Of a stretch of DNA of 64,000 nucleotides, positions 7,360 to 26,800 are shown piece after piece. The stretch covers positions 3,066 to 67,065 of the forward strand of contig CAYHIN010000001.1 of the NCBI GenBank assembly GCA_964356705.1, written 5' to 3'. Below the pieces are notes generated by a model. It was given only the letters and a program-made list of their open reading frames with translations. It made no database searches and was not told the DNA's origin. The stretch is from an uncultured Gammaproteobacteria bacterium. Lineage in GTDB: Bacteria; Patescibacteriota; Microgenomatia; CAZETR01; Amesbacteraceae. The position numbers were made by a program, and so were the translations under genes. The number at the start of each line of letters is the position of its first letter. Within the stretch, counting starts at the first letter, position 1.

Positions 7360-7378
7360 TCGTGCTACACTTTAACTC

Positions 7379-7723: not shown

Positions 7724-7733
7724 TTGTAAGCAC

Positions 7734-8036: not shown

Positions 8037-8039
8037 CTT

Positions 8040-8363: not shown

Positions 8364-8366
8364 CAG

Positions 8367-9100: not shown

Positions 9101-9102
9101 AT

Positions 9103-9438
9103 ATGTTGCTTGCCAGAATCATCAACCCCGCTCTAAACAGTAAAGTCGGCAACACTACGATCCAGGGAGATGGTCCTGGTATTTTGCAGCTGTTTTTAAG
9201 AAACTTTATCGATATTGCCCTCGGCACCGCCGGCGTCATCTTTTTCTTCATGTTATTACGTGGAGGTTACGAATATCTCACCGCCGGCGGAGACAAAGAG
9301 GCCGTCCAAAAGGCAACGAAGAGACTCACCACTTCGTTCATTGGTATTGCAATCATCTTCTCTCTTTTTGCCCTCGTCTTTATTGTTGAGGCATTATTTG
9401 GCATCTCGCTGTTGCAGATAAACATTCCCACTATATGA
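9103..9438 (+). CDS. VirB2/TrbC-like T4SS pilin paralog
   Basis: Start taken at the internal ATG (MLLARIIN), because the upstream part of the 8887 ORF overlaps the previous gene. TM - AGGDKEAVQKATKRLT - TM. Confidence 0.55.
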   Translation: MLLARIINPALNSKVGNTTIQGDGPGILQLFLRNFIDIALGTAGVIFFFMLLRGGYEYLTAGGDKEAVQKATKRLTTSFIGIAIIFSLFALVFIVEALFGISLLQINIPTI

Positions 9439-9764
9439 ACCTTCTTGCCCAAGCCACCATCAATCTCACAAACCCCTTATCACCTTATAGAAACCTCTTC
9501 TCTCTTCGTCCCTCTAGTTTAGTTTCAGCCGCTATCAGTCTCCTCCTTGGGGCAGCAGGTGTCACGGCCTTCATTTATCTTCTCGTGGGCGGTATCCAGT
9601 GGATTACTAGCAGTGGCGACAAAGAAGGACTGGACAAAGCCAAGAAAAAAATTACCCACGCTCTCATCGGTTTGGCGATCGTCTTCTCAGCTTACGCTTT
9701 GATCTTCATCATCCAAGCATTGTTCAACATTAGTGTCATCGGTGTCAATATTTCTCCTATTTAA
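9435..9764 (+). CDS. VirB2/TrbC-like T4SS pilin paralog
   Basis: TM - SSGDKEGLDKAKKKITHALIGL - TM. The 3' 80 nt are nearly identical to the next paralog. Confidence 0.6.
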   Translation: MNLLAQATINLTNPLSPYRNLFSLRPSSLVSAAISLLLGAAGVTAFIYLLVGGIQWITSSGDKEGLDKAKKKITHALIGLAIVFSAYALIFIIQALFNISVIGVNISPI

Positions 9765-9821
9765 TTCCTTAGTACTTTGCACTTAGCTCTTAGCACTATA
9801 TAATAAACTTAATGAAGGGAG

Positions 9822-10256
9822 GTGAATAATCAAGTGAGCAAAATACAAAAAATAATTCAGTTTGGGACCGCTTTGGGTACAGTATTGGCAGTCAACCCTG
9901 CTTCCGTTCTGGCCCAAGGAGCTTTTGATCCCACAGACAATGTAAATATCGCTCCCGAAGCAGGCGTTTTCAGCAAACTACCTGGTCTTCGTCCGTCCGC
10001 TTTCATTAGTGGAGCCATCAGTTTCCTGCTCGGAGTAGCAGGTGTAGTCGCCTTTATCTTCCTACTTTGGGGAGGCCTACAGTGGATCCTCGCCGGTGGC
10101 GACAAAGAAGGTACCGAAAAGGCTCGCAAGAAGATCACCTCCGCTCTCATCGGTTTGGCGATCGTCTTCTCAGCTTACGCTTTGATCTTCATCATCCAAG
10201 CGTTGTTCAACATCAGTGTCCTTGAAGTGTCTCTGAAACCACTAGGTAATCTCTAA
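9822..10256 (+). CDS. VirB2/TrbC-like T4SS pilin paralog with clear signal peptide
   Basis: Signal ALGTVLAVNPASVLAQG, then TM - AGGDKEGTEKARKKITSALIGL - TM. Confidence 0.65.
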   Translation: MNNQVSKIQKIIQFGTALGTVLAVNPASVLAQGAFDPTDNVNIAPEAGVFSKLPGLRPSAFISGAISFLLGVAGVVAFIFLLWGGLQWILAGGDKEGTEKARKKITSALIGLAIVFSAYALIFIIQALFNISVLEVSLKPLGNL

Positions 10257-10335: not shown

Positions 10336-10626
10336 ATGCCAGCCAAACTTAGCAATTTACAAGATGTATTTTCCAACGTCTTGGTTTCTGTTCTCTCGCT
10401 CATAGGTCTTGTGACTTTTGGCATGCTTTTGTGGGGCGGAGTCCAATATCTTACGGCGGGCTCCGATAAGGAGGCCGCAGGCAGGGCCAGAAACACGATT
10501 ACCTACGCTCTCATTGGTCTCATCCTCGCCATTTCCTCCGTCATGATCATCAATCTTTTGGGCACCTTCTTAGGTCTGGATTTCAGCACGTTCAACATTT
10601 GTCTCCCCGGGACCACTTCCTGCTAA
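10336..10626 (+). CDS. VirB2/TrbC-like T4SS pilin paralog
   Basis: TM - AGSDKEAAGRARNTITYALIGL - TM. Preceded by a strong stem-loop. Confidence 0.6.
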   Translation: MPAKLSNLQDVFSNVLVSVLSLIGLVTFGMLLWGGVQYLTAGSDKEAAGRARNTITYALIGLILAISSVMIINLLGTFLGLDFSTFNICLPGTTSC

Positions 10627-10640
10627 TATATAATAGTTCC

Positions 10641-13600
10641 ATGCTCCGTAAATTTTTCTTTTTCCTCATCGTATTTCTTCTCACGATCCATATTTTCCAT
10701 CCCCCAAGCACCCAAGCAGATTACCCAAACGACTGTGCTCTCGATTATCCCATTTGTCACACCAGTATTCCTCCAGGGACACCCGTAGGCACTTGTCTCA
10801 ACCACAGTGTCATAGGCTGCAACACCTCTTCCGGAGTACCGGGAGTTTGGTGCTGCCCCTCCTCATTTATTTTCCCTTCACTCACACCGACCCCCCCATC
10901 TGTCCCCACTTGCATCGCCAATGGCAATTATTGCGTAGCCACAAATGTCGCTTGTGATCCCGGCCACACCAGAGGTCAAGGTGGCAATTGTGAAACTGGA
11001 AAAATCTGCTGTGCCATCACCCTTCCTACTGTGCCTCCTCCCGGCGGCCCTCCGGGTCCCATTCCCCTACCCACCTATCCGACAAATTTTAGCCCCCTAG
11101 AATATCCCTGCAACACGACCACCGACGAAGAGTTTCATCCCCTACGTCCCTATCCGGCTTCTCCCTGCGACCCCCTCATTCCCAAAAAACAGGAGCCCGA
11201 TTTTCTTTCCTTCGCCTGCGGCAAGAGCCTAAATACTCTGGGAGAGTATCCCGTCAGCCGCAGTTTTACCCAAGCTCAGTTAGACGCCATGTCCCCCATT
11301 TTTCAAAACTACGGCGAGCCTTACCGTTGCGGCGCCCAGGTCTGTATCCGCAAACGCTCCGTTTTTGATATTGCCCTCGATTTATCGAGTGCCAAGTTGC
11401 CAATTATCGGCAACACCCAAGATCCCCTCGACGACGCCACCAAAGTCAACAATTATCTATCTTGGTATCTGGCCGGCACCAATCCCACCTGGCTCGAGGA
11501 CCTAAATTTGGCCACCCCAGCCCAAAACGTCAACTCCCAGTGTATCGGCACCTCACTGGCCACCTTCATGAACACCGTTGTATCTGGGACCACAAATTTA
11601 CGCAACATCCGCCTCACTTCTCCAGCCTTCAATCTTACCAATCCCGCCGAGCAGGATATTTTTATCGCCATGAGCCAGGCCGGAGCCAACTTTGCAGATA
11701 TCGACGCATTTGCCGGCAACACCTACACTCTAAATGGCGTAGCCGCCTACGATTGGGTCATCAGTCCCTCATTTCGCGGAGCCGACGGCAAAACCTGGAA
11801 AGAAAAATTCACAAGTTTCAACAAAGGCATTATCTTTACCGAATTCGGGGATTTTGCCACTTTTGACAACCCTCCCGGATCTCCAAATCGCGCCTCGGTC
11901 ATAAGCGCCATGCGCCAAGAATTCACCAATACCGCAGGCGATGGTGTCGTCAAATCCATCAACTATTTCAACGCTTTTGGTGGCAATCCCCAATTTATAG
12001 GCCACCAATTGTCAATCTCAGAGCTCCAGGTTATTACCAGCTCAAATTATTCAAAAAGCGGGGTCAATTCCGCCCAGGGAGTCAATCGCGATTTTCCCCC
12101 CAGAGTGGGCAGTGCCGGTCTCAAGTGGAGCGTGGAGATCATCACCTCGCCCGGTGATGAGACAGGTGCTATCGAATCCATCAACGCCGCCCATCGCGCA
12201 GGTGTCATCCCCATTATTCGCCCTTGTTACGGCAATTCCTGTGGTTTTGCCGATCCAGTTGTATATGTAGATTTCATCAGTCGGGTATCCCAGCGTGTGA
12301 CCGATCAGTCCCGCGAGATTTGGTTCATAGCCGGCCCAAACGAGCCCGCCGGTGAGCATTGGGCCGCCCCTCTTTGTGGCACTGCCGGCCAGCCCGTAGC
12401 CAGTATCGATTCTTTCTTGACTTACGCCGGTCCTATTCGTAAGCTCCTACCCCAGTATTCTCTGGATACCATCCGCTACGTTCTGGCTACCAATCAAGGG
12501 CGCAATGTCCACAATTATTTACTCGATACTCAAGGCCGCCGTATTTCCCAAGTTCCATCCTTCATTCGTCTCTATTCTCCCACCGATATCTGGACCAAGC
12601 TCTTCCAAAGAGTTCCCCTCGCCACTATGGAAGACGTCGTGGGCGAGGTCACCGTGGGCCTCATTACCTCTCCTAGATCCGACGGCTCATCTCCCCAACC
12701 ACCCGACGTTTATGTTGTAGACCCCAGCCACCCCGATGCCATGCGCCTTACCATCAAAGACGGATCGGACTCCCGCCTCTATTTCCCTCATCTCAAGACC
12801 GTAAGTTCCTTAGTCGAAGTCCTAAATGCTATCTCGAGACCCAAGCTCTCCCAAAACTATCGCCCCGATGAGCGAAACGTCACCCAGTATATCAACGAAC
12901 ACCAAGGTATCGATGACTCCACTCCTATCCAAAGAAAATCCAACGAAGGCAATTACACCGGACTCACTCGCAACACCGAAATTAGAGAAGGCGAGCCCGC
13001 CCCTACAGCTCTCTTTGGCCAAAATGATCATTTTGAGTTTGACCAGCGCTGCGAGCTCACGACCACCCAGGACGCCGTAGGTGACAATCTTTTTGGCCAG
13101 ACTATCAATGGTCGCCTCGCCTATACACATGATCTAAAGTTTGACCCCGTCGTCCAACCCAATGCTTGTCTTCCAGATTTTGCCGTCTGTACACCTGGCG
13201 TCGACGTTTGTTGTGACAATGCCGTATGCAGCAACGTCACTCTTGGTGGTATTGATTACGGCGACCGTTGTCACGGCGGCAATCCCAATTCCAGTTCCAT
13301 TCCCACTGAAGCTCGTGTCGCAGTCTTTACCAAGACTCCTCTCATCGATCGCTTTTATGGCGATCTTATTTCCAACTCCAACTCTTTCTTTAGACGTTTC
13401 GTCAATTGGTACGACCGGTCCACCGGCGGCCCAGATACAACGATTAGGTCAGGTTCTCTTACTTTTCCCGCCAAGACCCAAGTCGGTTATACTGCTACAG
13501 CCCCCATTCCTCCACCCGTAAGCCCCGAGACAGCCCCAGGCAATCCCAAAGCCGGAGCCGGCAACAATACCGGCGGCGCCGAGATTTATTTCCCCAGGCT

Positions 13601-15128
13601 CGGAAGTCTGGCCGATTATTTCCTAGGTGGTCCCACCAACGAGAGATTAAATCTCCAAAAGATGTTCCGTCCCAAAAACTTTGGTAGTCTTATCGGCCCG
13701 GGTGGTGCCGGCATTTTGGCCGCCTGCCAGCCGTATCTCTCCAATTTCCCCGGATCCATTACCGTAAACATCCAAAATCCCAAAAACGTCTTCTCCAAAG
13801 TCGGCGACAGTATTACCGTTTCGCCTAATTTCCTAGATGCCTTTGCCGGAGCATACAACCTCGGTAGTCATACCGGCCTTCAATCGGTAATCAATTTCTT
13901 CACTCCCTTATCTTTCACGGAAAATACCCTTGCCGCAGGCATCGGGTGGAACACCCAGGACCTTATAAATAATAATTTTTCCGCTCTAGAGTCTGAATAC
14001 ACCCGTACCAAGCCTGCCGTGGCCATTATCATGATCGGCACCAACGATTCCGGTGGCTCCAACCAAGTTGTGGTCCCAGTCTACACCGATCGTTTAGAAC
14101 GCATCGTAAATTACACTGTTAGCAAGGGTATAATTCCCATCCTCAGTACTCTCCCCCATCTCACCAACGCCAATCCCCAGCACAATACCAATACCGAATT
14201 GCTAACCGGAGCCATCAAAGACGTTTCGACCAGACTGGGTGTTCCCCTCATGGACTACCGCCTCGCCACCGAGCAAATAAATACTGCTGCACGCAACTGG
14301 GGCATTAGTACTGACAACATCCATCCTTCCGTCGGCGGTGGCAATGCCGGCGATCTTTCCGATTTACCCATGAGTGAAGGCGGCTACAATGTCCGAAACT
14401 TCGTCTCCCTTTGCGCCCTAGATGCAGTTTGGAAGACCAGACTGGGAGGAGATAGCTCTAGTAGTGGAGACTGCTTCACGGCAGCCCAACCCGTTACCGC
14501 TTCCTGCTCGGCGCCCGGATCCACTCCCCTAAACTATGCTTGTCACACCAATCTTGAGCTCAAATCCATAATCCAAGAGTCAGCAAATAAGTTCGGGGTA
14601 AATCCCAGCGTCCTCTTAGGTATTCTTAGTGTCGAAACCAGGAATGGTATTTTTGGAATTACTTCAGGTGAAGTGAGACGCCACTCCACTTCCACCTCAC
14701 AAACCGGCTTTACTCCATATATTTGTCAACCAAATTCTTGTGGCGCCATGGGAGCCATGCAGCTTTTGACTGGCATTGGCGTCCAGCCCAGTTGTTCTCA
14801 AGCCTACGGTATCAACAATTGGGCTCTATATGGTTCGGCCGTCGTAGAAGCTTGCAAAGCCCCCTCTGGTTACGGACCAAATCCCGGTAATATCCGAGAC
14901 TCAATATACGCCGGAGCAAAAATGATCGGCAGCTTCGGCCAGAACTCAAATTCCGAAGCCGGAGTCAAAGAAATCGGTCGCAGATATTTTGGCAACGACA
15001 CTTCCCGTTTTGATCTCTTTGTAAACTTGGATTACATAAACGACTGTGTCCCAGGCTACACCACACCTTCCTCAGCTCGCAGCATGACCTATGGTGAATA
15101 TCTTTGGGAAGTAGCCCGAGTTAGATAA
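10641..15128 (+). CDS. giant secreted cell-wall hydrolase: Cys-rich N-domain, SGNH/GDSL esterase domain and C-terminal SLT/lysozyme-like domain
   Basis: Start taken at MLRKFFFF (signal peptide). GDSL blocks are VGDSIT, MIGTNDSGG and DNIHPS. SLT-like motifs are QESANKFGV...LSVET...AMGAMQLL. The ORF track starts at 10599, overlapping the previous gene. Confidence 0.65.
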   Translation: MLRKFFFFLIVFLLTIHIFHPPSTQADYPNDCALDYPICHTSIPPGTPVGTCLNHSVIGCNTSSGVPGVWCCPSSFIFPSLTPTPPSVPTCIANGNYCVATNVACDPGHTRGQGGNCETGKICCAITLPTVPPPGGPPGPIPLPTYPTNFSPLEYPCNTTTDEEFHPLRPYPASPCDPLIPKKQEPDFLSFACGKSLNTLGEYPVSRSFTQAQLDAMSPIFQNYGEPYRCGAQVCIRKRSVFDIALDLSSAKLPIIGNTQDPLDDATKVNNYLSWYLAGTNPTWLEDLNLATPAQNVNSQCIGTSLATFMNTVVSGTTNLRNIRLTSPAFNLTNPAEQDIFIAMSQAGANFADIDAFAGNTYTLNGVAAYDWVISPSFRGADGKTWKEKFTSFNKGIIFTEFGDFATFDNPPGSPNRASVISAMRQEFTNTAGDGVVKSINYFNAFGGNPQFIGHQLSISELQVITSSNYSKSGVNSAQGVNRDFPPRVGSAGLKWSVEIITSPGDETGAIESINAAHRAGVIPIIRPCYGNSCGFADPVVYVDFISRVSQRVTDQSREIWFIAGPNEPAGEHWAAPLCGTAGQPVASIDSFLTYAGPIRKLLPQYSLDTIRYVLATNQGRNVHNYLLDTQGRRISQVPSFIRLYSPTDIWTKLFQRVPLATMEDVVGEVTVGLITSPRSDGSSPQPPDVYVVDPSHPDAMRLTIKDGSDSRLYFPHLKTVSSLVEVLNAISRPKLSQNYRPDERNVTQYINEHQGIDDSTPIQRKSNEGNYTGLTRNTEIREGEPAPTALFGQNDHFEFDQRCELTTTQDAVGDNLFGQTINGRLAYTHDLKFDPVVQPNACLPDFAVCTPGVDVCCDNAVCSNVTLGGIDYGDRCHGGNPNSSSIPTEARVAVFTKTPLIDRFYGDLISNSNSFFRRFVNWYDRSTGGPDTTIRSGSLTFPAKTQVGYTATAPIPPPVSPETAPGNPKAGAGNNTGGAEIYFPRLGSLADYFLGGPTNERLNLQKMFRPKNFGSLIGPGGAGILAACQPYLSNFPGSITVNIQNPKNVFSKVGDSITVSPNFLDAFAGAYNLGSHTGLQSVINFFTPLSFTENTLAAGIGWNTQDLINNNFSALESEYTRTKPAVAIIMIGTNDSGGSNQVVVPVYTDRLERIVNYTVSKGIIPILSTLPHLTNANPQHNTNTELLTGAIKDVSTRLGVPLMDYRLATEQINTAARNWGISTDNIHPSVGGGNAGDLSDLPMSEGGYNVRNFVSLCALDAVWKTRLGGDSSSSGDCFTAAQPVTASCSAPGSTPLNYACHTNLELKSIIQESANKFGVNPSVLLGILSVETRNGIFGITSGEVRRHSTSTSQTGFTPYICQPNSCGAMGAMQLLTGIGVQPSCSQAYGINNWALYGSAVVEACKAPSGYGPNPGNIRDSIYAGAKMIGSFGQNSNSEAGVKEIGRRYFGNDTSRFDLFVNLDYINDCVPGYTTPSSARSMTYGEYLWEVARVR

Positions 15129-15302: not shown

Positions 15303-16847
15303 ATGCCCAAAATAAAGAATTTCCTATCTTCTCTCCTTCTCTGTCTTACGCTCTCCTCCTTCTTTCCCTACTTTGCATTAGCCGTGGATGGTCCTTGGTA
15401 TAACCAAAATCCCCAACAATTCGGCCAAAAAGTCTTTGGGGGCGATCAAAACGAAATCTTTGGCGAACGCTATACCTTTGCCCAAGTTAACTGGATAATA
15501 AACAGTTTAAATTTGATATTAAATCCAACCAACGGCCAAACCCCGGACGCCATAAAAGGTATCGTTTGTGCCATCATCCCTCTTATCTCTCCAGGCTCTC
15601 CCTGCCCCATTGCCTCTACGCCTGAAAATAAGTGGATTGCTTACTCACAACTAGGTATAAATGGGCTTCTTGTTGGGGGCATCACCGAAATTACCGCTTC
15701 CCCACCAGCATCCGGAATTTTAGAAATAGGCGAGACTCTTGCAAAATTTGACCCTGCAACTCCCGTCCAGGCCCAAGGAGGTTATGGATTTGAAAGCTTA
15801 AACGGACTCAGAGTCATTTGGGGCGCTTCGCGCAACATGGCTTATCTCATTATGGTGATTTTGCTTATCGCCACCGGCTTTATGATCATGTTTCGAGTCA
15901 AGATCAATCCCCAAACCGCAGTCTCACTTCAAATCATGATTCCAAAAGTTATTTTCACTCTACTCCTAGTTACCTTTTCCTATGCAATAGCTGGGCTCGT
16001 AATCGATCTTGTTTATGTTGTCCTCGCCTTCGTAATCTCTGGACTCACGCTGTCCCAAGCAATTACCCCTCTCAGTCTTCCTGGTTCAGTGGGCTGGTTC
16101 TTTACCCCAGACTTTGGCAAGATATTCGGCTACTATCTTTTGTCGTGGCTCGTACAGATAGCAATCGGCGGAATTGCCGGTCTAATTGGAGTGGGCCTTG
16201 CTACACTGATGCCACCCTTAGCTCCATTTGTTGGATTACTAGGAACAATCTTTGCTCTTATTGAAATTATTTTTGCATTTGTACTTCTCTGGCTTCTATT
16301 TAAAGTTTGGTGGATGATGGTCAAAACCTATTTAACACTCATGTTTTTGATAGTTATTGGTCCTTGGCAAATTATGTTGGGCTTACTTCCCGGACAACAA
16401 GGTTTTGGAGGGTGGTTCAGAAATATTATAGCCAATGCCTCCGTATTTCTAACTGTTCCTATTATGTTTTTACTCAACATGTTCTTCTGGCCGATGAGTC
16501 CTTTCAGTCCGTTAGGTCAAGTAAATGGTGGAGCATCAGATTTACCCAGTTTTCCTCTCTTCGCTACAAAAGGCGGAATTTTTGGATTCGCAGTAGGCTT
16601 TGCCATATTATCGATGATCCCCAAAATTGCTGATATTATTAGAGACGCTCTCAAGATCCCACCATTCAAATATGGCTCAGCTCTAGGCGAGGCTCTAAGT
16701 CCACTTAAGATGGTAACCTCTCCTGCGGGTGGAGCAATCTCAGCAGGTGGTAGCAACGAACTAAAGGGTGCTACCACTGGATTACAATATGCCTCTGGCG
16801 GCATACGTCAGGCTGCTGGAGACTGGTTGAAAGGATCTATCAGGTAA
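15303..16847 (+). CDS. VirB6/TrbL-like polytopic T4SS membrane protein
   Basis: Signal peptide, about 180-aa extracellular domain, then at least 6 TM helices. Position between the hydrolase and VirB4 matches ConG/VirB6 in Gram-positive T4SS. Confidence 0.5.
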   Translation: MPKIKNFLSSLLLCLTLSSFFPYFALAVDGPWYNQNPQQFGQKVFGGDQNEIFGERYTFAQVNWIINSLNLILNPTNGQTPDAIKGIVCAIIPLISPGSPCPIASTPENKWIAYSQLGINGLLVGGITEITASPPASGILEIGETLAKFDPATPVQAQGGYGFESLNGLRVIWGASRNMAYLIMVILLIATGFMIMFRVKINPQTAVSLQIMIPKVIFTLLLVTFSYAIAGLVIDLVYVVLAFVISGLTLSQAITPLSLPGSVGWFFTPDFGKIFGYYLLSWLVQIAIGGIAGLIGVGLATLMPPLAPFVGLLGTIFALIEIIFAFVLLWLLFKVWWMMVKTYLTLMFLIVIGPWQIMLGLLPGQQGFGGWFRNIIANASVFLTVPIMFLLNMFFWPMSPFSPLGQVNGGASDLPSFPLFATKGGIFGFAVGFAILSMIPKIADIIRDALKIPPFKYGSALGEALSPLKMVTSPAGGAISAGGSNELKGATTGLQYASGGIRQAAGDWLKGSIR

Positions 16848-16851
16848 AACT

Positions 16852-19629
16852 CTATCTTCTTTTTCCTCTCATCCATGCAAACATTCTCCCCAGACCTGTG
16901 TCGTTCCATGAGTCTTCAGACATGTCCCAAAACTCTCTTTGTCCTGTGCGTGTATTTCTTCCAGCCCCTAACCATACAGGCAAACCAAGCACTGCAGCCT
17001 TTGTGGATAGAGTAATTTTAGGAAGTGTACCACTTCTCAACGCCTTCAATAGCTCATCAATCCCTCCTTTTCCCGACTTTCTATTCATTTCATCAGCAGC
17101 ATCATCGTTACCATCACGCAAATTACCTATGTCATCCATCGTATCGTCAATTTTTGCATAACCAGCATAAACACCTTGTAATGGTTTCGCATTCACTATT
17201 GTCGCCTCGTCTGCTGTCGGGTCATAATCTTCTGCTTCCTCCAAAGTCGCAACTACTCCAAATAAATCCTCTACTCCCCGCTCAGATACAACCCTAGCCA
17301 AATACCCCACTCCGCCAACATCTCCATTCTTATCGCCATGTTTCATCTTTTCCAATGGAGACTTGCACGCTCCTTCCTTTGAAAATGGTATCCATTTATT
17401 CGGATCATATTTACCTAAAATTTCCGATTGTGCATTTTTGATAACATCTCTTGTCTTTTTTTCAGCCTCAATTTCCCGATTCAGTTTTTCCCTTTTTGCA
17501 GCACTCAAATCTTTATCTTCCAACTGTCGCTCGATCTTAAATATTTTTACTTCTTGAAGCAGCCTCTCTGTTTCCGATCTTCTCCAAATATCGGAGTCCT
17601 TCCTTACTTCTACTAAATCAGTAGGTAAACCTGACACTCCCTCATATACTCCTGGATTAATCACTGGGTTCCACAACGCCTGATGTGTGTTGATCATTTT
17701 TCTATATTCCACCATTTCCGGCCCAAGCGCCAAGAGCTTAGCAAGTTCTCTCATTGATCCCACTCTTACTTCATCCATACCATCAAATCTGGCCATCATA
17801 TCCTTCCCAATCTGGTTCATTCTTGCTTTAACGGCTGTATGCAGTAGCTTATTGTGACCCTTCCTCATCATATCCTGAAGTTCACCCTGATACTCAGCCA
17901 CAAAGCTTGCCTGTTCTGCCGACAAATCTCCAACCTCTTGGCCACACAGTGCCAACCACATTCTAAGAGAATCTTTAGCGATTTCATCATTTGAATAAGC
18001 CCTGAAAGTTTCTTTCAAATTAAACGATGTCTGATTCAACGCACCCTCCTGCACATCTCTATCTAGAGCCTTAGATCCACCACCCAAACTATTCCAAGTT
18101 CCTTGATCTTTTGCCCTTATCGTCATCAGCTTAAACACCCCACCAGTCAACAATTCATAAGCATTCATCGCTCTCTCAGTCACTCCTACTCGATCGACGC
18201 TTCTTCCCTCAGCTCCAGCCAAAGCTTTTTCTTCTTCCACTAGACCTCTTGTTATAGCTTCCAATCGAATCCCTGGCGCTTCTCCAATCTTAAAAGCTGT
18301 AGCAATTACTACTCTTGTGCTCTTCATGACCAACTCCATCCCCTCTGCACCAGTCTCTGTCACGAATAAAAACTTAGGTAATCCATGTGCCACCAAAAAT
18401 TCATCATTCACCAACTCTTGACTCACATCTGTTTCATCCTCTTTTGGACCATACCTACTAAAGGACTCTTGTCCTACACTACTTCTTGCTTGAGACCGAC
18501 CATTTAATATTCCATTTTGGGGTTTTATTGCTTTTCTTATAGTAACCCCAGGATCAACTGATTCGTCAGTCATACTCACCAACAAATTAGCTGTCGTCAG
18601 TTTTAAGTCACCAAGGTTGAGGTATTTTTGCCTATCTTTTTGCTGTTCAAGCTCTCTTGCATCATATGGCCTTTTGGCGCGCTTTAACGCCTCAAGCTGG
18701 GCCACCACCAGATTTGTCTGCACCCCTTCAAGCCATAAATCAACTACTGATTCATATTTGCCATCTTTCCACCCATTGACCTTTCTATATTCAGCCAATT
18801 CTCTACAATAGGCCGCTGCTTGTTCAACGGGAGGATCGCTACTCACTATCCCCAAGGCCATATCCCGATTCCATTCACGCATAATTTCAGTAAATCTTTG
18901 GCCAACGAGGGAGTTTATTTTCGCAAAGGCGTTATCAGCTTCAGCGGCAGCCACCAATTCCTTTCTCCTCCTAATAAGACCGTTATCACGTAAGATATTA
19001 GGGTCTTTTGAAAAATCGCTTCTCAGCTCGTCACTCAACGCATCCCATTCATAATAGGTTTTGATATCACTTTCATAAATGCTTTTATCCATTTTTGCGT
19101 CAAAATCTCTTAATATTGTTCCGCCTTTTCCAGCCCCCATTGCCACTTCCATCCGCCTCAGTTGATATTCTACCCACTCCAGATATACATCTTTATTTGC
19201 AATATGCTTCTCGTCCAGCTTTTTCTCACAAGCTTCCAATACTGACTTTATAATTTTCACCAGATCTTTAGCACCAAAACCCTTCACTTTTCCACTCTCA
19301 TTTACCCGTATCGCCTCTATCCAAGTTTTTCGAACTTTACTTTCAACAATCTCTCCCAACCCTTCTACTTGGGCTTCTTCACCCACCTGCATTAACCACT
19401 CAGTTGCTTTTGCACTCTCAGGTCCACCTTTTCGAGCCGTATCTCTTACTTGTTCGTACGAAGGAGAAGGTGCAGATTCTTTCACACCGGCGATTCCTCT
19501 ATATTCGGGAGCATGTATTCTTGTCACTTCTTCAGCAGTGGAAGGAGCCCGCTTTCGCGAACCTCCCAATCCCTCAATATCTGGCGCACTTAATCTTTCA
19601 GGTATCATAAATTCTCCAAAATCAGGCAT
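16852..19629 (-). CDS. large acidic hypothetical protein (925 aa), no TM, no recognizable motifs
   Basis: Single long ORF on the opposite strand, embedded within the T4SS-like cluster. Confidence 0.6.
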   Translation of the reverse strand: MPDFGEFMIPERLSAPDIEGLGGSRKRAPSTAEEVTRIHAPEYRGIAGVKESAPSPSYEQVRDTARKGGPESAKATEWLMQVGEEAQVEGLGEIVESKVRKTWIEAIRVNESGKVKGFGAKDLVKIIKSVLEACEKKLDEKHIANKDVYLEWVEYQLRRMEVAMGAGKGGTILRDFDAKMDKSIYESDIKTYYEWDALSDELRSDFSKDPNILRDNGLIRRRKELVAAAEADNAFAKINSLVGQRFTEIMREWNRDMALGIVSSDPPVEQAAAYCRELAEYRKVNGWKDGKYESVVDLWLEGVQTNLVVAQLEALKRAKRPYDARELEQQKDRQKYLNLGDLKLTTANLLVSMTDESVDPGVTIRKAIKPQNGILNGRSQARSSVGQESFSRYGPKEDETDVSQELVNDEFLVAHGLPKFLFVTETGAEGMELVMKSTRVVIATAFKIGEAPGIRLEAITRGLVEEEKALAGAEGRSVDRVGVTERAMNAYELLTGGVFKLMTIRAKDQGTWNSLGGGSKALDRDVQEGALNQTSFNLKETFRAYSNDEIAKDSLRMWLALCGQEVGDLSAEQASFVAEYQGELQDMMRKGHNKLLHTAVKARMNQIGKDMMARFDGMDEVRVGSMRELAKLLALGPEMVEYRKMINTHQALWNPVINPGVYEGVSGLPTDLVEVRKDSDIWRRSETERLLQEVKIFKIERQLEDKDLSAAKREKLNREIEAEKKTRDVIKNAQSEILGKYDPNKWIPFSKEGACKSPLEKMKHGDKNGDVGGVGYLARVVSERGVEDLFGVVATLEEAEDYDPTADEATIVNAKPLQGVYAGYAKIDDTMDDIGNLRDGNDDAADEMNRKSGKGGIDELLKALRSGTLPKITLSTKAAVLGLPVWLGAGRNTRTGQREFWDMSEDSWNDTGLGRMFAWMRGKRR

Positions 19630-19705
19630 TGTCCAATTATACCGTACCCAGGCTAATTTGGCCGCCGGCCATAAAACAACAAGCCGTGCCCCAAAACATC
19701 AGTTT

Positions 19706-19927
19706 CTAATTGCTTATAAGTCTTCCATCTTCAAACCAGCTTGCTTCAAAATACTCCTTAAAGTGTTCTTCTTCAGGTCTTTGTTGTGCATTGGCACAGT
19801 AGTCCTCAAATTTCTCGCTGCATGAAACATGCTGTACATGACTACCTATCTGTCGTTTTTTCACAAAACCAGCTCTTTTCAGAATTTTTAACATCTCTTT
19901 CGGTTTCATCGAGGGCAGATTTCCCAT
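19706..19927 (-). CDS. HicA-like mRNA interferase toxin (divergent C-terminus)
   Basis: KPKEMLKILKRAGFVKKRQIGSHVQH matches the HicA/YcfA N-terminal motif. Confidence 0.45.
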   Translation of the reverse strand: MGNLPSMKPKEMLKILKRAGFVKKRQIGSHVQHVSCSEKFEDYCANAQQRPEEEHFKEYFEASWFEDGRLISN

Positions 19928-20196
19928 ACACTACACTGCACTGCAAATCTTGGTCCAGTCACATTTACTGGAACCACAAAACTGTTCTCATCAGGCTCAG
20001 GAATCTCCTCACCATCCTCCTGCAATACTCGCAAGTATCCACCAATCGCATCTCTCGCCATCTCGATGGCCAACTCATAAGTATCACCTTCAGTCACAAG
20101 TCCTGGCAATTTAGGCACAGTCACAGTGAAACCACCCTCCTCACAAGGTTCAAAAACCGCATTATATTTCAGTACTTTTACTACACTTTTACTCAC
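19906..20196 (-). CDS. HicB-like antitoxin
   Basis: YNAVFEPCEEGGFTVTVPKLPGLVTEGDTYELAIEMARDAI matches the HicB/UPF0150 N-domain. Overlaps the HicA-like ORF by 22 nt. Confidence 0.55.
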   Translation of the reverse strand: MSKSVVKVLKYNAVFEPCEEGGFTVTVPKLPGLVTEGDTYELAIEMARDAIGGYLRVLQEDGEEIPEPDENSFVVPVNVTGPRFAVQCSVWEICPR

Positions 20197-20279
20197 ATCA
20201 TCATTTTAACATTTTAATACAATTAGATTAATCCCAATCAAAAAACAATAGTTAACATTTCGGATATAATCAAATCAAT

Positions 20280-21338
20280 ATGGAGCAACATGCAGTTCCT
20301 CAAAACATATCGTCGTACGAATTTCGCCTAGTAGGAGACATGACTCTCAAGCAGTTCTTTCAGCTGGCAGGCGGCATTGTTTTAGGGGTCGTCATTTTTC
20401 GCCTCCCCATTCCCGTTTTTATCAAATACCCTCTTGTTTTTATCTCAGTCATCGTGGGTGTTCTCATGGCCTTTGTTCCCATCAACGGTCGCCCTTTCAC
20501 CGCCTGGATCACTGCTTTTTTTAGAGCTATCTATGCTCCCACCGAATTTTTATGGGCTCCGGATACAGAGATTCCAGTTGCCAGCAACATTGCACCCATA
20601 ATTAGCGCCACCTCTCCTTTTCATTCCACCACCACAAATTCAAACACCCCGTCCACGCTTAGCGTGGACAAAGGAACGCTTAGCGTTCCAGCTCCAACTC
20701 AAAAAATTCCCTCTCCTGGATCAGGAGAGGGCAAGGGTGAGGTTTTGAAGGAAATACCCATGACTCCCGTAGTTTCCATGCCGAAACCTACAACCAAAGA
20801 AACTACTTTCAGTTCCTACACGCCACCACCTGCTACGCTTAGCGTAGCAAAAGGGACGCTTAGCGTTCCCAAACCAGTCATTGAACCAAAGTCAGTCATA
20901 GAACCCAAACCAATTTCTCCTATACAAGTTCCCTCTCCTGAATCAGGAGAGGGCCAGGGTGAGGTCGTCGGCCCCGTCACCCAACCTCTAAAAAAACCAG
21001 TCCCAGAGATCAATCTTCCCCAAGTTCCAGCAGCATCCAGCGCGACATCAGAGACCCAAAACGTTCCCACTCCCACTCAACCAAATGTCCTGGCCGGCAT
21101 GGTCACTGACCGTTCTGGAACAGCTATCGAATCTGCCATAGTCGAAATTATCGATAGTGTCACCCAGATTCCAGCCAGAGCCTTACGCACAAATCGCACC
21201 GGTCTCTTTCAGATTGTTACTCCTTTGAAGCCATCTAGTTACCAGGTCATAGTCGAAAAAGAAGGCCTTACATTTCCTCCAGTCAGCATCGTGGCAAATG
21301 GAAAAATTATCCAACCCATAATCATTAAAGCCACATGA
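20280..21338 (+). CDS. VirB3-like membrane protein with C-terminal extension (tandem 70-aa repeats plus CarboxypepD_reg-like beta-sandwich)
   Basis: N-terminal two TM helices as in VirB3/PrgI. Internal duplication TLSVxKGTLSVP...PSPxSGEGxGEV. C-terminal GMVTDRSGTAIESAIVEIID... Confidence 0.5.
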   Translation: MEQHAVPQNISSYEFRLVGDMTLKQFFQLAGGIVLGVVIFRLPIPVFIKYPLVFISVIVGVLMAFVPINGRPFTAWITAFFRAIYAPTEFLWAPDTEIPVASNIAPIISATSPFHSTTTNSNTPSTLSVDKGTLSVPAPTQKIPSPGSGEGKGEVLKEIPMTPVVSMPKPTTKETTFSSYTPPPATLSVAKGTLSVPKPVIEPKSVIEPKPISPIQVPSPESGEGQGEVVGPVTQPLKKPVPEINLPQVPAASSATSETQNVPTPTQPNVLAGMVTDRSGTAIESAIVEIIDSVTQIPARALRTNRTGLFQIVTPLKPSSYQVIVEKEGLTFPPVSIVANGKIIQPIIIKAT

Positions 21339-22003
21339 AACCCTCTACACAATCCCATTTAGATATCTACGACATCCAAAACGATCTACTGATCCTCAAG
21401 GACGGCTCAGTGTGTCTCCTCTTGGAGGTCTCCGCTATCAACTTCGGCCTCTTCTCCGAAAGAGAGCAAGAAGCCACCATTTATGCATATGCTCAGTTGC
21501 TCAATTCTCTCAATTTTACGATCCAAATAGTCATCACCAGCAAAAGAAAAGATATTACTGATTATCTAGACAAGCTCGAGGTCAGGCTATCATCTGCCCC
21601 TTCCCCAAAGATCAAAGACCAGCTTCTCAAATATCGCGATTTTATAAAGTCCATCGTCCGCCAGGGTAATGTCTTGGACAAGAAATTTTTCATTTCCATC
21701 CCCTTCTCGTCTCTGGAATTAGGTGTCAGCTCAGCTCTCAGTGCTTTTTCAAAAAAACCCACCAAGCCCCTCTCTCCTATCCCCACGATAGTCGAAAGAG
21801 CCACAAACAATCTCACTCCCAAACGAGATCATTTGATCAGATTGTTAGCCCGGATCGGCCTCAAATCTCGCCAGCTCGGAACCCTTGAGCTTCTCCAATT
21901 GTTCTATGACTCCTACAACGCCACAGATTTGGGTACCAAGGTGACACTTCCCATACAAGCAGGTGTCATCCTGAGCGAGCGTACACCTAAACCAACATCA
22001 TGA
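21335..22003 (+). CDS. probable N-terminal fragment of VirB4-family ATPase
   Basis: DIQNDLLILKDGSVCLLLEVSAINFGLFSEREQEATIYAYAQLLNSLNFTIQIV resembles the N-terminal region of Gram-positive VirB4 homologs. ATGA overlap with the following ATPase ORF. Confidence 0.45.
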   Translation: MKPSTQSHLDIYDIQNDLLILKDGSVCLLLEVSAINFGLFSEREQEATIYAYAQLLNSLNFTIQIVITSKRKDITDYLDKLEVRLSSAPSPKIKDQLLKYRDFIKSIVRQGNVLDKKFFISIPFSSLELGVSSALSAFSKKPTKPLSPIPTIVERATNNLTPKRDHLIRLLARIGLKSRQLGTLELLQLFYDSYNATDLGTKVTLPIQAGVILSERTPKPTS

Positions 22004-23880
22004 AATTCCCAACTCTCAAAATCCCAAACATAAAGAAAAGTCATCTACCCTCTCCTGGCGAAGGAGAGGGACCGAGGGTGAGGTTAACAGAGCCAGTCTC
22101 AAAAAAATCCCTCACCACCGCCAAAACTGTCCGCGACATCATCGCCCCTTCCTCTATCTCCATCGATTTCAACTATCTCAGACTTGGCGATCTCTACTAC
22201 CGCACCTACTTCACAAATATCAATCGCCGCTTTGTCGATGCCAACTGGCTCTCAGCTCTCATCAATTTCGACCATTCGCTCAACATCTCTATGTTTATTT
22301 ATCCCGTCGAAAGCAAAAGCACTCTCGATGATCTCAGAAGAAAAATCGCCGAAATGGAAGCCGAGATCAGTACCGATATGCAAAGAGGCCGTGTCGTCGA
22401 TCCCTCGACCCAAGCTAAGCTCGAGGACGCCCTTTCTCTCCAAGACCAGCTGGTCAAAGGCATTGAACGTTTCTTTCAGTTTTCCCTCTATGTTACGATT
22501 CCTGCCGAATCCTCATCAGAGTTGGACAATGTCGCAAAACAGGTCACGAGCACTCTTTCCTCACTCCAGCTCACAGCCACTCCCGCCCTTCTGGAGCAAG
22601 CCGAGGGTTTCAAGACCACTCTCCCCACTTGCGTCGACCATTTGGGCGTTCTCCGCAACATGGATACTACATCCCTTGCTACTACTTTTCCTTTTACCTC
22701 ATCTGAGCTTTCCAGCAACGATGGTGTGCTATATGGTCTCAATGAGCACAACGGCAGTCTCGTTCTCTTTGATCGCTTTAGTCTAGAAAATGCCAATACG
22801 GTAGTCTTTGCCAAGGCTGGGGCTGGAAAAAGCTTCCTGGTCAAGCTCGAGATTCTAAGGTCGACCATGTTCGGCACCGAGATTATCATTATTGATCCCG
22901 AAAACGAATACAAAACTCTTTGTGAGGCCGTGGGTGGTGAATACATTAACTTCTCTTTCAATTCCCAAAACCGCATCAATCCTTTTGACTTGTCGCTTCT
23001 GACCCAATATTCCGACGAAAACGAGCTCAATCTCAAGATTCAGTCTCTCCACTCCCTCTTCAAAGTCATCATGGGCAACCTCAATCCTACCGAAGACGCC
23101 CTTCTCGACCGTGCTCTTACCCAGACGTACAAAATGAAGGGTATTACTCCGGACCCTGAGACTCAAAAAAAGACTCCTCCTCTTATGGAGGATCTCTACA
23201 AAGCCTTTGTGGGCATGGAAGACCCCGAAGCCAAGTCTCTGGCCGACCGCATCGAAAAGTTTGTCAAGGGTTCTTTTGCCGGCATCATCGACCAGCCTAG
23301 TAATATCACTCTCAAAAATCCCTTTACCGTCTTCTCTGTCCGTGATCTGGAGGATTCTCTCAAGCCTATCGCCATTTTTATTATTCTCGACTTCATCTGG
23401 ACCAAGATGAGACGCGACCTCAAAAAGCGCATTCTCGTCGTAGACGAGGCTTGGTATCTCATGCGCTATCCCGATTCCGCCGCCTTCTTATATGGTATTG
23501 CCAAGCGCGCCCGCAAGTATTTCCTCGGCTTGACCACTATTACCCAAGACGTCGAAGATTTTCTGGCTTCTGATTATGGCAAACCCATTGTCACCAACTC
23601 TTCTATTCAGATTCTCATGAAGCAGTCTCCTGCGGCAATTGACAAAGTCGCCCAACTCTTTTACTTGTCAGAGGGAGAAAAGCATCTCCTACTCTCAGCC
23701 AACGTCGGAGAAGGTCTGTTCTTTGCGGGCAACAATCACGTCGCCATCCGATTTGTAGCCAGTCCTGACGAATATCAGTTGATTACCACCAAGCCAGGCG
23801 ATATTCTAGCCAAACAGAAGACCGATGCTGAAAACGCAGTTCGTCTAGTTACTCAAGAAGAACCCACCCAAAATGCCTGA
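22000..23880 (+). CDS. virB4: VirB4/TrbE/ConE-family T4SS ATPase (C-terminal two-thirds)
   Basis: Walker A VVFAKAGAGKSFLVK and Walker B ILVVDEAWYLM. 626 aa; together with the upstream fragment about 848 aa, a typical VirB4 size. Confidence 0.8.
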   Translation: MKFPTLKIPNIKKSHLPSPGEGEGPRVRLTEPVSKKSLTTAKTVRDIIAPSSISIDFNYLRLGDLYYRTYFTNINRRFVDANWLSALINFDHSLNISMFIYPVESKSTLDDLRRKIAEMEAEISTDMQRGRVVDPSTQAKLEDALSLQDQLVKGIERFFQFSLYVTIPAESSSELDNVAKQVTSTLSSLQLTATPALLEQAEGFKTTLPTCVDHLGVLRNMDTTSLATTFPFTSSELSSNDGVLYGLNEHNGSLVLFDRFSLENANTVVFAKAGAGKSFLVKLEILRSTMFGTEIIIIDPENEYKTLCEAVGGEYINFSFNSQNRINPFDLSLLTQYSDENELNLKIQSLHSLFKVIMGNLNPTEDALLDRALTQTYKMKGITPDPETQKKTPPLMEDLYKAFVGMEDPEAKSLADRIEKFVKGSFAGIIDQPSNITLKNPFTVFSVRDLEDSLKPIAIFIILDFIWTKMRRDLKKRILVVDEAWYLMRYPDSAAFLYGIAKRARKYFLGLTTITQDVEDFLASDYGKPIVTNSSIQILMKQSPAAIDKVAQLFYLSEGEKHLLLSANVGEGLFFAGNNHVAIRFVASPDEYQLITTKPGDILAKQKTDAENAVRLVTQEEPTQNA

Positions 23881-26800
23881 TTCCCCTCTCACTCAACTTG
23901 ATATCCAAAATCTAGAGTCAGCCATGCGCCTAGTCATCGAGGGCTATCAAAAAATCCGTTCAGAAAACCAAAGAGACATCTCCGAGTTTGACTTCTTTAG
24001 ATCAGAAATCCAACCTGTGTGGGATTGGGTCGGTCGGTATCTAACTCCATTTCAAATTCAAAAAATTCTGGGCGAAGCCTCTATTTCCTCCGAACACACC
24101 AAGGATGCCGAGAAAGAACGTGTTTTGGAAATCTGTGCAAATCTGCGAGCCAAGATTTTTAAAGAAATAAACAACTCCGATCTAGCTACCGTCCAAGAGC
24201 TTACTCAACAATGGGAAGAAGCAGAAAAAAATCTTTCCGCCCAACCCGACCCCGCCACTCAGTTTGTCACTCGCATCAAAAAAAGGTCTGCCATCTATGC
24301 CGCCAGGGCTTCTGTCGCCTCACTTCCTGAAAAAGAGATTCCGTCCACCCCGCCCCAGATTGATCCACGCATGGACGAAGTTATTGCTACCGCCTTCAAA
24401 GATATTCCTATACCAGACCAGGTCTCATTTCACAGAAAACTAGCTGATCTGGTCCAAAAAGCCAGCACCGCCTCTCCGGATGAATATCAAAGAATTACCC
24501 AGGAACTAGTCACTCACGTCGAAAAATCCACCGGCAGACCTCTCCCCCCGTCTCTACGAAAAGAGGTTCTTTCCTACATCCCACCCCTCGCCCGTCTTTC
24601 AGATTCAAAGATCACCCACGACCTTCAGTCGCTAGACACTCTAGAAGAAAAAGCTTTATATCTCCAAAACCACACGTCAGCCCATCTGACCCAAACCGAA
24701 GCCGTTGAGACAGCTCGTCAATATACCCAGCACGACACGGCTACCGTATCTCAAATAGTAGACACCATCCGGGATTTTTCCCACAACCAGGAGCTTACTT
24801 CCGCTCAGTCTACAAAACTAATTAATGAGATCTTGCCAGAGACTCTCCAAACCCACTCCAAAGAAACAGCGTCCAAACTGCTAACCCAAGTAAGATCTGT
24901 CCTCCCAAACCAAACTTCAGACCAAATCTCTAGCCTTACACAGGATCTCATCTTTTCCAAAGAATTCGCTTCTTCTGTCACTACCACATCTAAAGATGCC
25001 CCCAAGGAAACCTTCCTCGGCTCACTTCGCACTCTTATCCATCCCCATACCCTCCTTACCGATGCATCATCCATATCAGCCCAGTCGGGTGTTTCTTCAG
25101 AACTAATCACAAATCTTTTGATACAAACCCAATCTCAGGTTCTTACGCAAATTGCTACTCCAGAGTATGCCCAAAAATATATTGCTTACCTAGGCATTAC
25201 AGATTTTGATCCAGAAAGGACTCGCCAGATTGCAGATAGCGTACTCGAGGTCTTCACCAACCCAACTCTCTCTACCGCCACACCCCACATCACCACCTTT
25301 CTCACCACTCCCCCCAAACAAACACCCAAATATATCCAAAAAACGACTCTTGATTCAGTCGCCGAGGATTTTTCCAAAATTATTTCGGCAACCTTCCCCC
25401 AAAACTCTCCCGAGACCAAAATACTCACTGGTCTCATCCATCCTATTGCCAAAGGTCTGTCCATCTCACCAGAGTCAGCCCGAGACACACTTATTTCCAC
25501 AGTCAGATTAACCAACTATCTTTCCCCCTCAGCAAATACCAACCAGACTCTGGAAAAACTAGCTCCCATCATCGGTACTCTCCGCACAGTTCATCCAAAT
25601 ATCAAGCTCCTCACTTCATCTACCTCCTCAATTCTCCAAAGTCACACTACCCTCTCTAGTGCACAGCTCATTTCAGTGACAAATCAGTTTACTCTTAGGT
25701 ATCTTCTAAATCCCACCACAGATCCTCAGATATTTGCCAGCTATTTTGACAAAAGTATCCTTCCCCAGCTAGAAGCCCTCACTGGTCGTTCTATTTCACC
25801 TGAGAAGAGTCGCCAGATCTTTTCAGATCTTCACACTCATCTCCAGACCAATCCTCTTAGATTCACGGCAGACCAACAAGTCTTATCCTCACTCACCGCC
25901 CACTTCACCAAAGCCGGCCTCACCCCCGAGCAAGCCCGGGTTCTCGCTCCCAAACTACTCGATTCCGCCAAATTGAGTTTTTACTTCAGCGGATATACCC
26001 CTATAGGTAAAAATCTCGTTCACACCAAAGCCCTCCAGGCCCAATCTTTTAATAATATCTTCAAAGTCTCCTTAGAGAGTTTAATAGAAGCCAATCCAGC
26101 CCTCGCCAATCTCCGTTTTGGATATCTAAACTCCCGCAGAGTTTTTGAAGATCTCCACACTGTTTTAGGCAACCCTACTGCCTTAAGTCCCGAGTTTCTT
26201 ATCAAAATCCAGTCCCCAGTTATTTATTCTTTCACCAAATATTTAGAGGGCTACATTCCAGAACCCATCCGCCCAGTAGTGGCAGCTGCCGCCAAAACTC
26301 TACTTGGTAGTGCTTTTCTCACCTCAAAGTTTGCCGAACAGTCAGGATTAAGAAGTTTTGTTGCCGTCCTGGCCGCAGGTTCTACTAAACTTCGTCCCTT
26401 GGGTGTAGCCAGTGCCCTCAAGTTTTCCGGCAAAGGCGCCCTCCAATACAATCTCAGGTTTCTAAACAAATACACTGGCATGAAAGTAGCTGGGAATCCC
26501 GTAGCTCTGGCCTTCAGGAAAAATTTCCAAGCCCCAGTTTCAGCAGCCGTCAAGGGAGTTTGGACCAAATTTGCAGGTACAGCAGCCGGCAAAGCCATAA
26601 CTGCGGCAGGAGCAAAAATAGCTGCCAATGCCGCCCTTCAGCCCATTCTCCAGGCTATTGGCAGCGCCGCTCCCATCATTGGAAACCTCATTGCCCTTGC
26701 CGTCGGCTGGGTAGTAGGTGAGGTGCTCGTCAAGCTTATCGACCCGGCGATTCGATTTCTCAAAGAGCTAAAAGACAATATCATTCCCGGCGCCACGGCC

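Follow-up and report, generated by a model that had tools for sequence, protein, structure and literature searches.

In a Candidatus Amesbacteria-like gene cluster resembling a type IV secretion system (T4SS), one gene lying antisense between a VirB6-like gene and prgI is, by protein alignment, far more divergent than its neighbours, and the DNA on either side of it indicates replacement via recombination between conserved flanks, not steady divergence. The cluster sits on contig CAYHIN010000001.1 (GenBank assembly GCA_964356705.1, positions 3,066 to 67,065 of the forward strand), and this whole 64,000-nucleotide (nt) stretch is the window referred to throughout. The position between the two flanking genes is called the slot, and its occupant in the window is as follows.

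16852..19629, minus strand: slot gene, 925 amino acids (aa), predicted cytoplasmic, mostly alpha-helical and family-less (open reading frame [ORF] call and sequence searches), stop codon at 16852-16854

Judged from sequence comparison, the product of this gene may be a polymorphic cargo (substrate or effector) of the T4SS-like system, a reading put forward tentatively and with somewhat less than even confidence.

Between the window and the closest VirB4 locus (L009, 93% VirB4 identity), the cluster was collinear at 60 to 93% identity (VirB4, 93%; TraC, 87%; DnaA, 83%; YidC, 92%), whereas the slot proteins (918 versus 569 aa) had no similarity (E value, 0.84). Identity to L005 was 82% for VirB4, 64% for TraC, 63% for PrgI, 45% for the VirB6-like protein (p514), and 21% for the slot protein; identity to L002 was 66% for the GDSL protein, 67% for the VirB6-like protein, 91% for PrgI, and about 32% for the slot protein, over its N-terminal third only. 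Identity between loci L018 and L019 was 100% for VirB4, 99% for TraC, 97% for PrgI, and 70% for the VirB6-like protein, with a slot identity of 30%, so that at 93 to 100% VirB4 identity the slot proteins were 0 to 30% identical. Two independent DNA comparisons showed like boundaries: between the window and L009, similarity was lost at 16696, with some 150 nt of the VirB6-like gene still to come, and returned at 19627, the slot start codon; L018 and L019 were 84% identical until about 270 nt before the VirB6-like stop, had no similarity over the slot gene, and were 93% identical from the slot start codon on. Sharp DNA breakpoints, slot divergence, and a variable VirB6-like tail together point to recombinational replacement between conserved flanks. 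The closest homologous slot-gene pairs were only 30 to 41% identical, and synonymous sites are therefore saturated. L018 and L019 are contigs 2 and 3 of metagenome-assembled genome (MAG) CAZFGX01, where the whole T4SS region thus occurs twice, either through two strains binned together or through a duplicated cluster with different slot alleles.

The slot was surveyed in 80 VirB4-anchored GTDB loci, 36 of which had both flanking genes. Antisense ORFs of 400 to 1283 aa lay between the flanks in 33 of the 36, ending mostly 3 to 30 bp from the VirB6-like stop, and a few loci held two or three slot genes in tandem. Slot proteins were mostly 530 to 1140 aa long with an isoelectric point (pI) mostly of 5 to 7, the majority without a transmembrane segment. 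Single-linkage grouping with phmmer split 57 slot-region ORFs into 27 groups (26 besides that of the window; 18 singletons). Iteration of a hidden Markov model converged on the same 20 members (plus L007, a duplicate of L001), and hhalign comparison of 37 other slot proteins with the family profile found no remote homology (probability below 5% each). Pfam gave no match for 17 of 20 representative slot proteins scanned, and PADLOC assigned no family to the window protein or to six other slot proteins. The sole occupant with a recognisable enzymatic domain was the product of one of the two tandem slot genes of L044 (3116-6016), in which a PP2C-type phosphatase domain is accompanied by hydrophobic segments.

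Exhaustive HMMER searching of 1.84 billion cluster representatives retrieved only 10 other homologue clusters (25 to 34% identity; E values, 2e-38 to 4e-4). Word-indexed protein searches (single protein, alignment A1, and module alignment A4) brought up no cluster other than that of the query, and a scan with family alignment A2 found nothing in GTDB genomes and only two metagenome loci, one of them already known. Context was read for all 10 clusters, the contigs of L003 and L004 being too short for much beyond the gene. Each cluster with informative flanks occupied the same slot, convergent with a VirB6-like homologue of about 515 to 560 aa, and was divergent from prgI-trsD-virB4 where the contig extended that far. 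A sequence-only reading of this DNA had suggested checking whether the gene co-occurs with the T4SS locus, and had taken scattered homologues or a disrupted ORF as the signs to the contrary; every homologue with informative flanks and 33 of 36 related loci kept the T4SS linkage and the antisense position, and the ORF was intact in all homologues and positional analogues.

By matches between their parts, the connected group of slot proteins are mosaics of exchangeable modules, and the window protein is divided as follows.

18559..19584, minus strand: N-terminal module (residues ~16-357), common only to the L002 slot protein (P0003)
17671..18450, minus strand: conserved core of the C-terminal module (C-module; residues ~394-653) with motifs FLxxHGLP, GTFSSL, and YRK; predicted beta-hairpin and helices, predicted local distance difference test score (pLDDT) 76-95
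17410..17619, minus strand: window-specific insertion of ~70-85 residues, predicted long helical hairpin (coiled coil), missing from other family members
16954..17346, minus strand: conserved C-terminal stretch of this module (residues ~762-892) with motifs GVDGL, G[DE]IPxI, and PxYxGKG
16855..16929, minus strand: C-terminal tail, last 25 residues, ending ...MFAWMRGKRR, within the class-wide basic-tail trend

Query residues 16-357 aligned with P0003 residues 13-341 at about 32 to 34% identity (E value, 2.9e-33 by HMMER and 3e-37 in the module comparison), and C-module residues ~394-653 matched L001, L003, L008, L004, and L006. Within the connected group, L003 residues 43-318 matched L021 residues 161-426 (5e-68) and L003 residues 286-771 matched L008 (1e-104); L021 residues 467-985 matched L075 (2e-98); L010 combined a piece of L029 with the L006 C-module; and L013 included pieces of L006, L002, and L067. 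N-terminal extensions varied across the family, and the C-module (residues ~394-653 plus 762-892) was conserved. The insertion corresponded to alignment columns 1101-1190, occupied by the window sequence only, with helices at 664-696 and 703-733 (918-aa numbering). Family-invariant residues in the alignment were nearly all G, P, L, and R, with no catalytic-looking set.

The slot ORF ran for 925 codons from ATG, as the sequence-only reading had it, and a stop-free run of that length has a chance of about 10^-18 at the window's base composition. NCBI holds an identical 925-aa sequence (MEK9200781.1, labelled hypothetical protein, from a Patescibacteria MAG); the MGnify version has 918 aa and begins at Met8. 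The lack of a transmembrane segment (highest 19-residue Kyte-Doolittle mean, 1.25; 0 predicted), of Walker A and Walker B motifs, and of a recognisable family was likewise borne out, with zero matches in Pfam (threshold for family matches, E ≤ 0.01), NCBIfam, PHROGs, PADLOC, and PDB sequences, no PDB sequence match for the family profile, and no internal repeats in a sequence scan. The earlier description as acidic was true, the acidity being mild (pI 5.45; 154 D+E versus 138 K+R).

The 5' end of the gene carried a promoter-like element.

19636-19641, minus strand: TATAAT -10 element on the upstream side, separated by 6 nt from the ATG at 19627-19629, a -10-to-ATG geometry shared by most related slot genes and many first genes of the window

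In other loci, TATAAT or TAAAAT preceded the first ATG by 6 to 8 nt in most slot genes, which implies a putative promoter of the gene's own and a leaderless or near-leaderless mRNA. The position of the element supports the predicted 925-aa start and an independent transcript; an alternative start is Met8 (ATG ending at 19608, with GGAG before it). Leaderless mRNAs seem to be the norm in the window's organism, as TATAAT or TAAAAT stood 6 to 7 nt 5' of the ATG at many first genes (for example 1938-3434, 3708-4391, 15303 [VirB6-like], 33968, 36290, 43383, 44051, 52401, and 57942) and Shine-Dalgarno sequences were nearly absent; with the geometry so widespread at first genes, it is a trait of the organism and not of the slot gene. 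The N-terminal peptide MPEGGDM was weighed as a signal and set aside from the evidence, its conservation being at least partly due to conserved promoter and 5'-end DNA and possibly also to the Shine-Dalgarno-like GGAGG ahead of the second ATG. No intrinsic terminator was found at the convergent junction with the VirB6-like gene, where the two stop codons are 4 bp apart.

The gene on the other side of this junction shares the breakpoint.

15303..16847, plus strand: convergent neighbour p514, candidate VirB6 analogue, 514 aa, signal/transmembrane segment plus ~8 transmembrane helices

This protein had no profile or Pfam match, and homologues of it occurred in about 40 loci. VirB6 is scarce in Microgenomatia according to the published survey, and the 514-aa polytopic protein is a likely VirB6 analogue of this group. 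VirB6-like proteins shared the motif IPKxADxIRDALKxPxFKYGxAxGEAL, followed by a hypervariable Gly/Ala/Ser-rich tail of 45 to 60 aa, and the last ~50 to 90 codons of the gene fell, together with the whole slot gene, within the hypervariable DNA block. The shared block fits a reading of the slot protein, somewhat unlikely in our estimate, as an accessory subunit of the machine, cytoplasmic and variable (an adaptor, gate, or assembly factor, or a coupling-protein stand-in) that would dock on the hypervariable VirB6-like tail and co-evolve or be co-transferred with it, perhaps as the detached hydrophilic domain of an extended VirB6. The slot was almost always occupied by an intact ORF, part of the family conserved a C-module of ~500 aa, no type IV coupling protein (T4CP) was encoded nearby, and S. 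epibionticum has essential VirB6-like proteins of ~1000 aa with ARM-repeat-like hydrophilic domains, encoded between virB6 and prgI (PMC10633639). A partner of VirB4, TrsD, and PrgI proteins that are 64 to 100% identical should not, however, tolerate a swap for dissimilar proteins with a two-fold length range; two or three slot genes stood in tandem in some loci; no NTPase motif was found in the slot protein; and the Gly/Ala/Ser-rich VirB6 tail may vary merely through disorder.

Structure prediction was consistent with a novel fold. AlphaFold2 with an 11-sequence alignment gave a mean pLDDT of 65.7, with only the core at ~400-650 (918-aa numbering) confident (76 to 95), and a single-sequence run gave 38. 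The model matched no known fold; its top BFVD matches were tape-measure and minor tail proteins, weak and non-significant (TM score about 0.1). Those names bring to mind a secreted molecular ruler for the VirB2-like pilus, whose length (~530 to 1140 aa) would fix a dimension of the structure, as YscP/FliK do in the type III secretion system and tape-measure proteins do in phages, a role that we rate very improbable. In its favour are the great and variable length of the slot protein, its mostly helical make-up, and its fast evolution with a better conserved C-terminal part, together with the pilin arrays of these clusters, which other monoderm T4SSs do not have (PMC12102498). Yet T4SSs are not known to have rulers, none of the fold matches is significant, rulers are usually orthologous and not swapped for unrelated proteins, and the tandem slot genes of some loci do not fit.

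In most T4SS substrates the signal sits at the C terminus and contains positively charged or hydrophobic residues, in many cases preceded by a conserved C-terminal domain (PMC8714903, PMC8740702). Over 51 slot proteins, unrelated families included, the last 25 residues were net basic (mean, +1.9; 39 positive, 8 negative, and 4 zero) and ranked at the 76th percentile of 25-residue windows of the same protein (Wilcoxon p = 8e-8); tails of 42 other window genes, used as controls, averaged +0.02 and ranked at the 51st percentile (Mann-Whitney p = 2e-4). At the other end, slot proteins averaged -2.1 over their first 25 residues, and as whole proteins they were acidic.

A cargo reading was favoured because it accounts for most of the observations: T4SS linkage, an intact soluble protein, replacement and shuffling, co-variation with the VirB6 tail, basic C-termini, and no enzymatic signature. 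The soluble alpha-helical slot protein would be made in the epibiont cytoplasm and, with its basic tail and C-terminal module serving for recognition, would be passed on to the host cell or the cell interface, and diverse or changing hosts would select for whole-gene replacement and module shuffling by recombination between conserved flanks. A broader proposal, plausible but doubtful, is that the antisense slot encodes Patescibacterial T4SS substrates as a fold-novel helical repertoire injected into or presented to the host, with diversity tracking host range and with the VirB6-like tail as a recognition element replacing VirD4. Epibiotic growth of S. epibionticum requires its T4SS, and the CPR (candidate phyla radiation) T4SS lacks a relaxase and has a substrate that is not known (PMC10633639, PMC12102498, PMC12857230). 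S. epibionticum is the sole Patescibacterium tested genetically in this respect. The slot gene makes the question of what is transported experimentally concrete. A gene in a fixed slot that is always intact and the fastest to be replaced and shuffled is an obvious first candidate for a cargo or for the machine's specificity determinant, and an antisense ORF between a VirB6-like gene and prgI is a genomic rule by which hundreds of such proteins could be harvested from metagenomes.

Several points weigh against a cargo. No T4CP or VirD4 gene was found in the cluster or among the Pfam-scanned ORFs of the 64-kb window (unscanned ORFs being below ~360 aa), and most known T4SS substrates require a coupling protein; in Patescibacteria, virB4 seldom has a T4CP gene close by, and such a gene may sit elsewhere in the genome (PMC12102498). 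The conserved C-module of ~500 aa far exceeds known T4SS signal domains and may alternatively be a docking domain for a machine component, just as the co-variation of VirB6-like tail and slot is no less in keeping with a partner of the machine. No toxin or enzyme domain was found in the slot protein (Pfam, PHROGs, PADLOC), nor an immunity-like gene adjacent to it. The tail statistic treats related sequences as independent, which inflates its significance, and the window protein's own tail has a net charge of only +1 over 25 residues, with +4 in the last nine (FAWMRGKRR). CPR T4SS has also been speculated to import, not export (PMC12857230), and relaxed constraint on a helical scaffold can be an alternative source of hypervariability; even a mere variable scaffold would be an unusual recombination hot spot within an essential machine locus. 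Of the roles offered by the sequence-only reading, that of secreted substrate or effector fits hypervariability, cassette replacement, shuffling, and basic tails best; no coupling protein gene lies nearby.

Between the slot gene and prgI, the window carried an additional insertion.

19671..20279, no strand: secondary insertion in the slot gene/prgI gap, comprising a prgI 5'-end remnant, HicA, HicB, and a new prgI upstream region
19706-19927, minus strand: HicA-like gene, part of the secondary insertion
19906-20196, minus strand: HicB-like gene, part of the secondary insertion

The antisense position beside a HicAB-like pair, as first described, was confirmed by Pfam and NCBIfam matches of the neighbours. 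A 33-nt prgI remnant at 19671-19703 (ATAAAACAACAAGCCGTGCCCCAAAACATCAGT) reads IKQQAVPQNIS, and the prgI start at 20280 reads MEQHAVPQNIS; in L009, which has no HicAB insertion, the slot-gene and prgI starts are ~40 to 75 bp apart. On the evidence of this remnant, HicAB is an unrelated secondary insertion into the prgI 5' end and no partner of the slot gene. Other genomes recurrently hosted small accessory modules in or near the same zone, including two MNT/HepT toxin-antitoxin pairs (L089, 507-2052) and, at further sites (L002, 509-811 and 5126-5437; L006, 535-882; L036, 4020-6689), modules of types such as 23S_rRNA_IVP genes, a lone nucleotidyltransferase, and two AAA-ATPase genes (L036). To judge from these gene contents, the interval behaves as a plasticity zone within an essential gene cluster.

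Such a zone could house an accessory gene with no part in secretion (for example anti-defence, strain-specific, or selfish cargo), and we regard this explanation of the slot gene as unlikely. It would group the slot gene with the HicAB and MNT/HepT modules, the 23S_rRNA_IVP genes, and the AAA ATPases acquired there, and would suit the low slot GC content at third codon positions (GC3; 0.357 versus a window mean of 0.462). The GC3 signal is, however, strand-confounded, because minus-strand genes of the window are generally lower in GC3, and a foreign origin on that ground was rejected. Homologues of the slot gene were never met outside the slot; orientation, tight convergent junction, and promoter geometry stayed constant, and size, charge, and alpha-helical character similar, across 60 to 93% VirB4 divergence; and there were no PADLOC or PHROG matches.

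The divergent layout, with start codons originally only ~40 to 75 bp apart, would also accommodate a regulator that controls the T4SS cluster at the transcriptional or post-transcriptional level and is encoded divergently from the prgI operon, but this is the least probable of the explanations. A size of 925 aa argues against it, and Pfam and NCBIfam identified no DNA-binding, RNA-binding, signalling, or sensor domain. Unrelated proteins replace the slot protein while the putative target promoter region stays conserved, and a swap of this kind between near-identical strains is unexpected of a regulator; the regulator named in the sequence-only reading found no support. Its qualification as element-encoded was not supported either, since the cluster is a conserved chromosomal feature by dnaN/dnaA/yidC in Microgenomatia (PMC12102498).

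The remainder of the cluster was annotated as follows.

6331-10256, plus strand: T4SS pilin genes, upstream run in the cluster
10599-15128: GDSL lipase/acylhydrolase-domain protein, 1509 aa, very large cluster protein
20280-21338, plus strand: PrgI/VirB3-like gene, in a divergent operon with trsD and virB4, conserved cluster anchor
21335-22003, plus strand: TrsD/TraC-like gene, divergent prgI-trsD-virB4 operon
22000-23880, plus strand: VirB4-like gene, divergent prgI-trsD-virB4 operon
23873-27712: 1279-aa protein with C-terminal transmembrane helices, very large cluster protein

The 1509-aa GDSL protein and the 1279-aa protein were conserved in position yet only ~60% identical to their L009 counterparts. 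The L005 counterpart of the 1279-aa protein has a Peptidase_M23 domain, and the 1279-aa protein may be a VirB1-like cell-wall hydrolase. Also in the window were dnaN, dnaA, yidC, leuS, groEL, rplY, and a SpoIID-like gene. A VirB4-alignment scan of GTDB species genomes returned 401 relatives, the best of them in Candidatus Amesbacteria and other Microgenomatia (Shapirobacteria, Woesebacteria, and WWE3). By these matches, the window is a Ca. Amesbacteria-like (Microgenomatia) chromosomal T4SS-like cluster near dnaA, not a mobile element. Many GTDB records (L009-L088) bear the title 'uncultured Gammaproteobacteria bacterium', 'Bathyarchaeia archaeon', 'Clostridia bacterium', or 'Nevskiaceae bacterium', yet VirB4 identity and synteny place them clearly in Microgenomatia; these titles are not reliable for taxonomy. 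GC skew was strongly negative (-0.07 to -0.42) throughout the plus strand of the window regardless of gene orientation and kept its sign at dnaA/dnaN (28209-30914).

Patescibacterial T4SSs are MPF-FATA derived, include arrays of VirB2-like pilins, lack a relaxase, and seldom have a coupling protein gene close by; in Microgenomatia they often lie beside dnaA (PMC12102498). The window matches the Patescibacteria T4SSs described by Quinonero-Coronel et al. 2025 (PMC12102498) and Wang et al. 2023 (PMC10633639) in VirB4, TrsD, PrgI/VirB3, pilin arrays, dnaA/dnaN location, and the lack of a relaxase and of a nearby T4CP. An antisense hypervariable gene is not mentioned in the examined parts of either article; the published synteny figure draws genes without profile matches in plain grey, and the main text does not use the terms 'hypothetical' or 'unknown function'.

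Within these systems there is a likeness to the extended VirB6 proteins (PMC12857230) and to SEML1_0011/0013 of S. epibionticum (PMC10633639), which also comprise a large, hydrophilic, alpha-helical, variable polypeptide linked to the VirB6 channel subunit and encoded between virB6 and virB3/prgI. Extended VirB6 domains are fused to transmembrane helices and co-directional with the operon, whereas the window protein has no transmembrane helix, lies on the opposite strand, and has a promoter of its own. Among effectors, the Xanthomonas X-Tfes (PMC8740702) are similarly T4SS-linked, with variable N-terminal parts, a conserved C-terminal recognition region, and a positively charged or hydrophobic tail. 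Their XVIPCD is ~120 aa long, has an alpha-alpha-beta-beta-beta fold and a Gln-rich tail, and binds VirD4, in contrast to a slot module of ~500 aa with no known fold match; X-Tfes also have recognisable toxin domains beside immunity genes, and the slot locus has neither, nor a nearby VirD4. The Beps of Bartonella (PMC8714903) are likewise modular, domain-shuffled effectors in which a basic tail comes after a helical signal domain near the C terminus, but they need VirD4 and belong to a diderm pathogen of eukaryotes, and no BID, FIC, or OB domain was detected by Pfam in the slot protein.

Membership was rejected for each of the following known classes. The X-Tfe and Bep families were excluded by the lack of XVIPCD and BID (Pfam, E ≤ 0.01) and of any PDB sequence or fold match, and a T4CP (VirD4/TcpA) by the lack of a transmembrane segment, of Walker A/B motifs, and of an AAA/FtsK-type Pfam match. 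A conjugative relaxase was rejected with no Pfam or NCBIfam match and only 7 His in 925 aa, none of them family-invariant; replacement by unrelated proteins also argues against such an enzyme. VirB6 or extended VirB6 would be expected to have five or more transmembrane segments (the neighbour at 15303-16847 has ~8 or more), and the slot protein has 0. A polymorphic toxin with immunity was rejected for want of a toxin domain and of a downstream partner ORF, for which there is no room because the slot stop lies 4 bp from the convergent VirB6-like gene, and an anti-phage defence component for want of a PADLOC family.

Fixed positions at which non-homologous genes are exchanged via conserved flanks are found in the cargo slots of VgrG/PAAR-linked effectors of type VI secretion systems, LXG toxins of type VII secretion systems, and cdiA-CT/cdiI of contact-dependent inhibition. 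The variable cargos of these three systems are toxins paired with small immunity genes, and conserved ends with swapped interiors are typical. The window slot resembles them in exchange at a fixed locus position and differs in having no toxin domain or immunity-like ORF. A polymorphic slot inside a secretion-system locus is a known arrangement, and what is new here is its occurrence in a monoderm CPR T4SS with fold-novel occupants.

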